A stretch of DNA of 64,000 bases, from the sequence record PZ674595.1. The stretch is one strand, 5' to 3'. Numbering within the stretch: position 1 is the first letter of the stretch; every line of letters starts with the position of its first letter. Origin of the DNA: a phage. The position numbers are program-made. This document shows positions 8,389 to 11,300 of the stretch, piece after piece.

Positions 8389-11300
8389 TAATAGCGGAAA
8401 CGGAATGGGGAAACTCATTCCGTTTTTGTTTATCGCCTTAGACGGCAAAAGTGCTGTCGCCCACCTGCGCTTGCGCATACCAGGCCATAAGCTCCGTGGT
8501 TCCTGGTTCTCCTTCCGCTGGAGCCCAGTGCGCATAGTCATCGGCAGCCACGGGTTGATAGCCACCGTGTTTTACTTCAAAAATTATGCCACCGGTATCC
8601 AGCGACAGCACGGCATGCCAGGTTCCTGCGGCCATCTCCAGCACCGTACAGGTTTCCCCCAATATCGCCCGATGGGTGACGGTACCCCGATCGTCAAAAT
8701 TCAGCACCACGAAACGACCCCTTAATGGCAACAGTAGCTCGAAGGTGTGAGGGTGTCGGTGCGGGCGCACGTAGGTCCCAGGTACAAGTGCAAACGAAGA
8801 AGTCTATCTGGCAGTAGCCTAATAAGCCAAACACCAGCGAGGTCAGTTTCCAGCCTCGTTACCGAAATGGGACACACTGAGCGAGTGTGATTGCAGAACG
8901 CAGGAGGGAACATTCATGTTCCCTCCGATGAAGTAACAGAATGGGCGGTTGGTATATTTTCAACTCCATATGACTCCCGAATTCTTAGCCACTGACCGCC
9001 CATCCTGTTACGTCATTTTGTTCAATTATGTCGTTTATACTGGGTTAAAAAGCGGCGACGTAGCCCGGCTGGTATGGTTAGCCAGCACACAACGTTGAGG
9101 CCATTACATTTTTATCAATTCTAAGGTTCTATTCACAGAGATACCGGCGAGCATTGATATGTAACATGTTGGGCAAACATTCAATCGGAGTAGTGGCCTC
9201 AACGTTGTGAAGACGGGATTGTTGTGTAGGTTTAACCACTGTTGCCATTGGTACCTGTTTTCACAACAAATGATTCCATACATCACATTGTATAAATTAC
9301 AAAGTAGGTGCTGTCCTCAGAAACATCATCTACTTAAAGATTTTGCCTTCTACTATTGAGCGAAGTCGAAAGCGTCTGGCACTAACGAAAAGTGCAAGTA
9401 GCGGTGCGTTTCCTGGCAGAAACTAAACCGTCGCGATTGGCACTGTTGAGTAATAAATACTGGCAGTGCTGAATTGATGGTGTAGCTCAGCGGTAGAGCA
9501 GTTGGCTGTTAACCAACTGGTCGGTGGTTCGAATCCACCCACCATCGCCAATTTAGGGGAGTTAGTCCGTAGGGGCAGCGGGGTAGACTGTAAATCTACT
9601 GTCATTGCGACTCGGGTGGTTCGACTCCATCACTCCCCACCAAATTGCCGGTTTAGCTCAGTTGGTAGAGCGCCTGCCTTGTAAGCAGGATGTCAGCGGT
9701 TCGATCCCGTTAACCGGCACCAACACAACAGGTAAGAGCATTGGGCGAATCGGCGATACTGACCACAAGCCCGTAAATCGATAGAGTCAGACCAGTGCTC
9801 TTACCGTTGTGAGGAAGTGCAGCTCTTTGAAGCAACCAGAAGATAAGCATCTGGCTTCACAACACAACGATAAGATCATTACGGTTAATCGTCGTTCATG
9901 TGCACAATGACTGGTCGAAAGGTAGTGATCTTACCGTTGTGATGAATGCACAGGCTGATGTGCCGCAACTACAGTAGTGCGCGCTTTGCGGGGCTTGCTA
10001 CAACCCTGTGTCGGAGTTCAGCACCGACCATCACAATAGCTGGAGAGTAGGGAGCATGGTGCTCAAGCGGTCTTGAAATCCGTCCCATTGTGCAAACGAT
10101 GATGGTTCGATTCCATTACTCTCCGCCAGACACAGCGTTGAGCGGTTTGGCCTTTTAATCAACCAGATTAAGACTCCGCTAACATAAACCAGACCGCTCA
10201 ACGCTGTGATAGACAATTACGGCAGACGTTCTTAACCATAGCTTGCTAACATCCTAGCAACACTTTTTTCAGCGCAAAATTCAAAGGGGCTTCGGCCCCT
10301 TTTTTGTTGAACAGTGCAATTTACTTTGCATAGTCGCCCAATTTTAATATTTCGCGCTTATATTCATTAACCATGCTACTGGATTCAGTATAAATTCGAT
10401 TTAAAAGATTATCGTTATCTTTATTTTCATTTATCTTAATTAGTGCTAATTTATATTCATAGTCATCAAATGCCACAATTAAATGGTGGCCTGGGATTAT
10501 ATCTTCGTCACTCTTAAAGTATATATCTTCAAGTATGTAATCTAGTTGATTAGATTTTCTTTTCTCGATGTAATCTTCAGCCATAGCTATTACATCATTC
10601 CTGTCATTTAACCTGTTTTTTTCGGAAGGCACATCTTCGTAATGTTGCACGATTGAACAACCAATAAGGCGTGGGATGTAAACATCAAAATGAGTAACTC
10701 TATCATTCGCGGTTTTAAGTAGTTCCTCAAAGTAGTTTCTTACATGTAAAGGCAACTTCTCAAAGTAATCATTAATTATAGGAGAACAAGGAGTTTTATA
10801 ATTCATAAGAACCGACGGTACGAGCTTTGGGTGTCGAAACATCCAGTCCCTTTTAACGTCCGATGGAACATAATAACTTTTAATGATATTATCAAAATAA
10901 TTTATCATTCGAGATTTGAATATTTTGTTGAATCTAAGGTTTATGAATGTATCCAGATAAGGCATATTTGAATAAGCATCATCAAAAAATATTTCATCAT
11001 TGAAAAAATCATATTTATTCAATAAACAACACAGTTTTTCCGAATTAATATGTTCACAATAATCGATTTTTAATCCAAAGATAGCAATGATCAACTTCAT
11101 CTGAGGTGGGATTTTAAAAATTAATTGTGACACATACGCTCTTTTTTCCTTGAGACATTCCCCATCAATATAAAATGAACCATCCACATACTCAAATATA
11201 TTAATAATATGCTTCACATACTGTATTACCTCATGCTGTCTTACCAATGGGTAATATAGTCTATGTAACTCATCGCTGTTTAAATTAATTTTGTGTTTAT

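Follow-up and report, generated by a model that had tools for sequence, protein, structure and literature searches.

Four long hairpins, H1 to H4, interleaved with four tRNA genes in an SSU5-like Escherichia coli phage-plasmid (sequence record PZ674595.1, of which a stretch of 64,000 nucleotides, called here the window, was analysed) are probably RNase III processing signals that separate tRNAs, small RNAs (sRNAs) and mRNA in polycistronic phage transcripts. Judged by sequence and structure, they are members of one homologous family found in temperate enterobacterial phages, lambda, P1 and the K-12 prophage Qin included. Each is an RNA element with a two-turn helix of about 20 bp, a largely fixed pattern of base pairs and an arbitrary apical insert. 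Among the functions proposed in a preliminary description of this DNA, RNase III-type processing of a tRNA precursor appears the best supported by homology to the Qin and lambda hairpins, because the Qin homologue holds a 5' end of the sRNA DicF that has been published as dependent on RNase III. The family as such appears to be undescribed, as it has no Rfam family and its sequence was not found in the literature searched; H1-H4 newly join a kind that was first studied in 1988-1990 on lambda late RNA and on the dicF operon.

The region matches E. coli plasmids some 110 kb in size with 100% identity, and phages Cyrano and CMS-2020a with about 97% identity over the aligned parts. H1 (9088-9209) has a 20-bp stem (CACAACGTTGAGGCCATTAC / GTAGTGGCCTCAACGTTGTG) with an 82-nt apical part and shows 99% identity with its counterpart in Cyrano. 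Its end is separated by 266 nt from tRNA-Asn(GTT) (9476-9550), which is followed by tRNA-Tyr(GTA) (9556-9642) and tRNA-Thr(TGT) (9647-9722), all three predicted by ARAGORN and scoring 75.5, 39.7 and 73.1 bits, respectively, with the Rfam tRNA model. H2 (9724-9811), a 20-bp stem with a bulged A, starts 1 nt 3' of the CCA of tRNA-Thr. A conserved spacer (9812-9862) with a small hairpin (GAAGCAACCAGA..TCTGGCTTC) and CACAACA at its end, near-identical in P1 and Ro157c2, leads to H3 (9863-9941), whose 19-bp stem has one A.C mismatch. The 100 nt from the end of H3 to the next tRNA are a second conserved spacer (9942-10041; ATGAATGCACAGGCTGATG ... GTCGGAGTTCAGCACCGACCATCACAA), identical in P1 and Ro157c2, and a related sequence comes after the hairpin of phage CUS-3. 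H4 (10131-10208), a 20-bp stem of the variant type CACAGC...GCTGTG, starts 2 nt 3' of a tRNA-Ser(TGA) of the long-arm type (10042-10128) that was predicted by ARAGORN and is annotated as tRNA-Ser in Cyrano and D6. The unit is closed by an intrinsic terminator at 10283-10302. All four hairpins lie on the + strand, in the same orientation as the four tRNAs, the two spacers and this terminator, and the observation of the preliminary description is confirmed. In Rfam the tRNA-Ser is matched best by tRNA-Sec, with 41.1 bits where the gathering score is 47, and the molecule has an odd D-arm and a long variable arm.

Each of the four inverted repeats, located correctly in the preliminary description, folds as a single long hairpin. 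The stems are 19-20 bp long and not 16 bp as had been given, so that the enclosed parts measure 38-82 nt instead of 46-90 nt. The stem strings said to be shared among the hairpins are so only approximately, H2 reading CACAAC-A-GGTAAGA and H3 CACAAC-GATAAGA. None of 200 shuffled sequences folded as well as H1 (dG -47.5, z -6.9), H2 (z -5.9), H3 (z -4.7) or H4 (z -9.9). The pattern CACARCNNTNAG..CTNANNGYTGTG, a loose consensus, has 0.00 chance occurrences expected in the window. A covariance model (R1) found exactly four copies in the 64 kb, with 53-70 bits and E-values of 1e-11 to 1e-16, and scored higher on the + strand for each of them. As the window copies were members of the R1 seed, their individual scores (53.5 bits, E 8e-12 for H1; 69.9 bits for H2; 59 bits for H3; 55.5 bits for H4) are matches by construction. 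In every + strand stem a U.G wobble occupies one shared position, which on the - strand would be A.C.

Model R1 was built from 23 distinct copies, H1-H4 among them, and has the consensus CACAAC(N)GKTRAG.. / ..CTYANC GTTGTG, that is, 20 pairs around a variable insert. Copies outside the seed score 57 bits in lambda and 43-63 bits in Pantoea, Rahnella, Citrobacter and others. Clear matches in species-representative genomes come from the Enterobacterales genera Escherichia, Citrobacter, Pantoea, Erwinia, Rahnella, Ewingella and Mixta, and two metagenome bins also give clear matches. In addition, viral contigs scanned with a degenerate arm pattern yielded at least 120 loci. Among the matches listed from these contigs, to which the counts of placement given below refer, are P1-like and SSU5-like elements and numerous prophages, about 40 kb in size, of the lambdoid or P22-like type. 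Many loci hold arrays of 2-6 copies detected by R1. Rfam 15 has no family covering the hairpins of the window, P1 or CUS-3 in E-value scans, where only the tRNAs pass, and scans of 16 other loci at the gathering threshold gave nothing on the hairpins. A 77-nt variant, the commonest one in the viral contigs, is found at L131 4445-4521, in a contig from a Cellvibrionaceae metagenome bin, and also in 334 complete E. coli genomes; this contig, of 9.7 kb, has probably been assigned to the wrong bin or is a contamination.

The earlier idea of a structured-RNA family was also partly right: the hairpins form such a family, with covariation. In an alignment of 56 distinct members, standard pairs fill 94.8% of the cells, compared with 33-51% pairing in slid controls, and double-sided changes are present in 17 of the 20 pairs, values that 0 of 500 shuffles reached. 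The result was the same in a smaller member set. Some pairs are near-invariant (A4-U, G8-C, A12-U, G13-C and U19-A), while pair 18 is U.G in 30 of the 56 members. Among 66 members the median length of the basal helix is 19 bp, and 53 of them have 17-23 bp; the apical inserts range from 7 to 121 nt and the whole elements from 48 to 160 nt. G.U pairs are more frequent on the tRNA strand (mean of 1.56 per hairpin) than on the other (0.41).

The placement of the hairpins also follows the tRNA strand. A tRNA is present within 400 nt of 54 hairpins; every one of them folds better on the strand of the tRNA, and 44 of these 54 start 1-3 nt past a tRNA 3' end. Where no tRNA is near, the hairpin comes directly after a T run in 46 of 71 cases. 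Many of the hairpins counted here belong to phages that are close relatives and do not represent independent events. Members of the family are found in the late-operon leaders of P22-like and lambdoid phages, and in CUS-3 and lambda the hairpin adjoins the terminator tR' downstream of Q. In further cases the array opens an early operon, a short way downstream of a gene for a CI-like repressor. The sense placement typical of the family, directly behind the 3' end of a tRNA or behind a leader terminator, is displayed in the window by H2 and H4. Some copies appeared to lie on the opposite strand (e.g. L025 3547-3627), an artefact of the position of the bulge, and in this contig the downstream motif GTGAATGC gives the same orientation for both copies. 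A conserved motif RTGAAK is found 3' of most copies. A fuller version, RTGAAKGC(N)CAGGCTGATG or GTGAATGCGGCT(R)AGCGCACGCGG, can be seen for example at 9942-9960 of the window, at L124 6078-6100 and at L126 2455-2490.

The comparison with Qin is what gives the family a probable function. Qin carries a divergent copy (CATAACGCGAAAGCGCATGG / CCGTGCGCTTCCGGTTGTG) between ydfC and dicF (L126 2174-2257, equivalent to NC_000913 1649173-1649256). For the dicBF operon, Faubladier et al. reportedly described in 1990 an RNase III site that lies upstream of DicF. The 190-nt DicF RNA disappears in a strain without RNase III, its 5' end has been mapped by primer extension, and the published figure of the RNase III site begins inside the loop of the Qin hairpin (PMC10448788). 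Counting 190 nt back from the annotated 3' end of dicF leads to about L126 2246, in the 3' arm and some 12 nt away from the stem base, a position that is accurate to a few nucleotides only since it derives from a stated RNA length. The published RNase III-dependent cleavage thus lies in a stretch that takes in the 3' arm, and the 5' end of the 190-nt DicF would fall within the Qin hairpin. The Qin hairpin stands in a polycistronic prophage transcript, as H1-H4 are proposed to do in a phage transcript; the Qin member differs in its divergence and in freeing an sRNA precursor and not a tRNA. No further clear copy was found in the late regions of the K-12 prophages DLP12 and Qin.

Lambda provides the second case. 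Between 27 and 48.5 kb its genome holds a single copy (44787-44862), which abuts tR', the 6S RNA terminator, on the downstream side and lies upstream of S. The arms (CACAACAGGTAAGAGCATTG / CAGTGCTCTTTCCGTTGTG) are the same as those of H2, but here the hairpin stands after a terminator and before the lysis genes, and there are no tRNAs. A paper by Daniels, Subbarao, Blattner and Lozeron (1988, Virology 167:568; cited in PMC7547250) announces in its title RNase III processing sites in Q-dependent lambda late RNA. The other RNase III sites considered in lambda, those of the N leader, sib and cIII, are not members of the family.

The dimensions of the hairpins are consistent with cleavage by this enzyme. 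RNase III accommodates a duplex of about 22 bp, and its substrates have a specific pattern of base pairs (PMC6212723). This pattern is set around the cut, in proximal, middle and distal boxes, and excludes antideterminants. The family helix, with its median of 19 bp and mostly 17-23 bp, fits such a duplex, and the 19-20 bp of H1-H4 correspond to a two-turn substrate (~20-22 bp). Reading of a base-pair pattern by RNase III would also explain that the stem sequence is conserved beyond pairing. The same conservation makes it very unlikely that the hairpins are passive structural spacers that insulate the tRNAs from misfolding or block 3' exonucleases and are not specifically cut by RNase III. For this purpose pairing alone would suffice, and neither a near-invariant stem sequence from Pantoea to Escherichia nor a length of about 20 bp would be needed. 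Spacers of this kind would suit very stable stems located directly beside tRNA ends. They would also suit the dicBF data, where upstream ydfA transcripts are lost in the rnc mutant (PMC10448788); this suggests a stabilising effect of the cut on the upstream RNA, which is compatible with a protective stem.

Several points weigh against RNase III processing. R1 matches the Qin copy weakly (26 bits, E 7e-6), and the location of its cut carries the uncertainty already given. That the lambda late-RNA sites of 1988 lie within 44787-44862 is our assumption, made from what the title implies. The total folding energy of H4 is slightly lower on the - strand. No sigma-70 promoter was found in a scan upstream of H1, so the transcription unit of the cluster is one that we infer. 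Furthermore, a processing role leaves unexplained why the apical parts are unrelated between phages whose flanks are about 100% identical.

If RNase III processing is accepted, the cluster H1-Asn-Tyr-Thr-H2-H3-Ser-H4 would be transcribed from the + strand as one RNA ending at 10283-10302. Host RNase III would cut both strands of every 20-bp helix, staggered and close to its middle, leaving tRNA-Thr and tRNA-Ser with 3' trailers of about 10-16 nt for exonucleolytic trimming, and RNase P would set the 5' ends of the tRNAs. Such cuts would part the tRNAs from the neighbouring RNA segments and uncouple their stabilities.

Arrangements of comparable logic are known in other systems. The inter-cistronic RNase III sites of phage T7 (R1.1 and others) are repeated hairpins that punctuate a polycistronic phage transcript. 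They have an internal loop at the cut and a small apical loop, whereas in the H1-H4 family a helix of about 20 bp runs without interruption and the apical insert is large and variable, and we know of no sequence similarity between the two. In the E. coli operon metY-nusA-infB a co-transcribed tRNA is freed by an RNase III cut just downstream, to go by the title of Regnier and Grunberg-Manago (1989, cited in PMC5371410). That operon belongs to the host and has a single site instead of a repeated family; the likeness drawn here is one of logic. The C1-controlled ban operon of P1 contains a dicF-like region, together with tRNA-Asn, tRNA-Thr, tRNA-Ile and four family hairpins, one of them starting directly after tRNA-Thr.

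Some annotations of these loci deserve comment. In P1, the stretch 3' of the fourth hairpin matches STnc100, a Salmonella sRNA family, with 33 bits, below the gathering score of 47. The P1 open reading frames (ORFs) plp ('putative lipoprotein') and upl are annotated antisense to tRNA-Thr, to two of the hairpins and to the conserved spacers (L001, NC_005856, 1575-2144 minus), and plp overlaps tRNA-Thr itself. Plasmid records similarly carry a 'hypothetical protein' under the window cluster (9710-9850 and 10031-10216, minus strand). All these, plp, upl and the similar plasmid 'hypothetical proteins', may be mis-annotations over RNA elements.

The genome paper of phage L says that it is not known whether the tRNAs in the late or early operons of temperate phages are excised from the long transcripts (PMC8022706). 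Hairpins that adjoin tRNAs and are homologous to a site cleaved by RNase III offer a concrete and testable answer. The family also links the isolated observations of 1988-1990 on lambda late RNA and DicF, and spans lambda, P22-like, P1 and SSU5-like elements across the Enterobacterales.

The apical inserts tell a different part of the story. The window, P1 and Ro157c2 are near-identical through tRNA-Thr, the H2 arms and the spacers, while the inserts at the apex have unequal lengths and no relation to one another, and the P1-like contig L005 has a fourth unrelated insert at the same site after tRNA-Thr. Cyrano is without tRNA-Tyr and also without everything from H2 through to the spacer that follows H3; a CACAA direct repeat bounds this second indel. 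In CUS-3 the annotated lambdoid 'boundary sequence' bsq4 ends at the start of the hairpin and bsq3 begins after the following module, so that the two flank a hairpin module, and the hairpin arms likewise act as mosaic junctions; 'boundary sequences' are however a comparative concept at the DNA level, and the annotated features leave out the hairpin itself. A 112-nt hairpin after tRNA-Ser in P1-like contigs (L031 5072-5183, L005 3260-3371, L043 5233-5344) encloses TAATTAAGCGAATGCCGGAAGCAGAACCGGATCA..., which in lambda is found just downstream of the hairpin, pointing to nested reshuffling. The unrelated inserts, the Cyrano indel, the CUS-3 boundaries and the nested insert indicate that the arms act as mosaic junctions. 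The suggestion of recombination hotspots was therefore right in part, namely in that mosaic breakpoints between related phages lie in or at the arms. This behaviour may be a by-product of arm conservation, a second function or a sign of exchangeable payloads.

These same observations favour the view that the arms and CACAA(C) are linkers for recombination, short homologies at the DNA level through which tRNA, sRNA and moron modules are exchanged, with RNA processing secondary or absent. We consider this rather unlikely. A pure DNA homology patch would not be expected to show a bias of G.U pairs to the presumed transcribed strand or a strict co-orientation with tRNAs. Pairing is maintained by covariation, the Qin homologue is a site of RNase III cleavage in vivo, and any conserved sequence of 20 nt gathers breakpoints as a by-product. 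As strand asymmetry, covariation and the Qin data speak for a role at the RNA level, we rank the readings based on recombination or on payloads as rivals or additions to RNase III processing and not as replacements.

The payload idea starts from the hypervariability of the apical parts amid conserved surroundings, as would be expected for a payload under diversifying selection or frequent exchange. The stem would be a scaffold for processing or stability, in the manner of a pri-miRNA, and the variable apical 40-120 nt would be trans-acting RNAs or decoys, which seems improbable to us. Many apical parts have predicted sub-hairpins of their own, the same operons encode sRNAs such as DicF, and minihelices resembling a tRNA T-arm occur in 2 of 63 loops, with 0.01 expected. 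Against this, the loops have no sequence or structure in common and some apical parts are very short, down to 7 nt. In a form that unites it with cleavage, and that we hold to be as doubtful, the RNase III-cut stem would be a portable scaffold releasing sRNA or decoy payloads as from a pre-miRNA, with the inserts swapped via the arms among phages of the lambda, P22, P1 and SSU5 types; the hairpin arrays would then be a cassette system for non-coding RNAs. A derivation of the loops from tRNAs was rejected as a family feature, the T-arm-like minihelix being restricted to the two loops mentioned.

Mobile DNA of the attC type or of the type of miniature inverted-repeat transposable elements (MITEs), with the hairpins moving cassettes as miniature transposons or as recombination sites folded from a single strand, is largely refuted and can be regarded as extremely unlikely. 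The size of 48-160 nt, the AAC...GTT ends, the bulged base, the variable centres and the arrays recall integron attC sites, and a tyrosine recombinase gene lies 2 kb downstream (12215-13318; a generic Phage_integrase match). The core sites of attC have the consensus RYYYAAC / GTTRRRY. The ends ACACAAC / GTTGTGA deviate from it, H4 has CACAGC / GCTGTG (AGC/GCT), and no integron-type integrase is adjacent to the copies of lambda, P1 and Qin. For a MITE, the hairpins lack target-site duplications or flanking direct repeats, and their interiors are unrelated from copy to copy. Of the two ends of the Cyrano indel, only one has a hairpin.

Two other identities were considered and rejected. The hairpins are not intrinsic terminators, which have a G+C-rich stem, a short loop and a U tract behind it, as the preliminary description had rightly held that they are not ordinary ones: in a scan of 8700-10400 no T tract follows any of H1-H4 and the only terminator-like site is the one at 10283-10302. 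The anti-sRNAs AgvB and AsxR of enterohaemorrhagic E. coli prophages, located between PR' and the lysis genes, share with the hairpins the motif ACACAACA, the consensus of GcvB R1 targets. AgvB is an sRNA of about 57 nt ended by a terminator and its sequence is unrelated to the hairpins, so that the match to ACACAACA is a coincidence or at most a distant possibility. CACAACA, with which the 5' arm begins in conserved form, is identical to the target consensus published for the GcvB R1 seed (window 9088-9094, 9724-9730, 9856-9869 and 10030-10036), and the end of the 3' arm, GUUGUG, resembles the R1 seed itself, a likeness of sequence only (PMC4104026).

Upstream of the cluster, comparison with Cyrano by BLAST revealed an ISEcp1-blaCTX-M transposition unit (5815-8782, + strand) as a clean insertion of 2,968 bp with 5 bp duplicated. 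It is intergenic, with a series of + strand genes on one side and the cluster of hairpins and tRNAs on the other, and ends on the upstream side of H1 at a distance of 305 nt; the adjacency described earlier is real, and the distance slightly exceeds the 300 bp then given. The blaCTX-M gene is on the + strand and reads towards H1. The insertion may have separated the cluster from its native promoter or placed it under read-through transcription, and in this way may have altered cluster transcription in the plasmid. Between the unit and H1, at 8904-9016, there are two hairpins of another type, both conserved in Cyrano and without a match to R1; the first has a perfect 11-bp stem (GGAGGGAACAT/ATGTTCCCTCC) and the second has 22-nt arms at 8928-8949 and 8995-9016. 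On the other side, right after the cluster terminator, an A+T-rich ORF of 420 aa occupies 10321-11583 on the - strand and has no match in Pfam or PADLOC. This region differs from Cyrano, which marks it as a variable spot adjoining the cluster.

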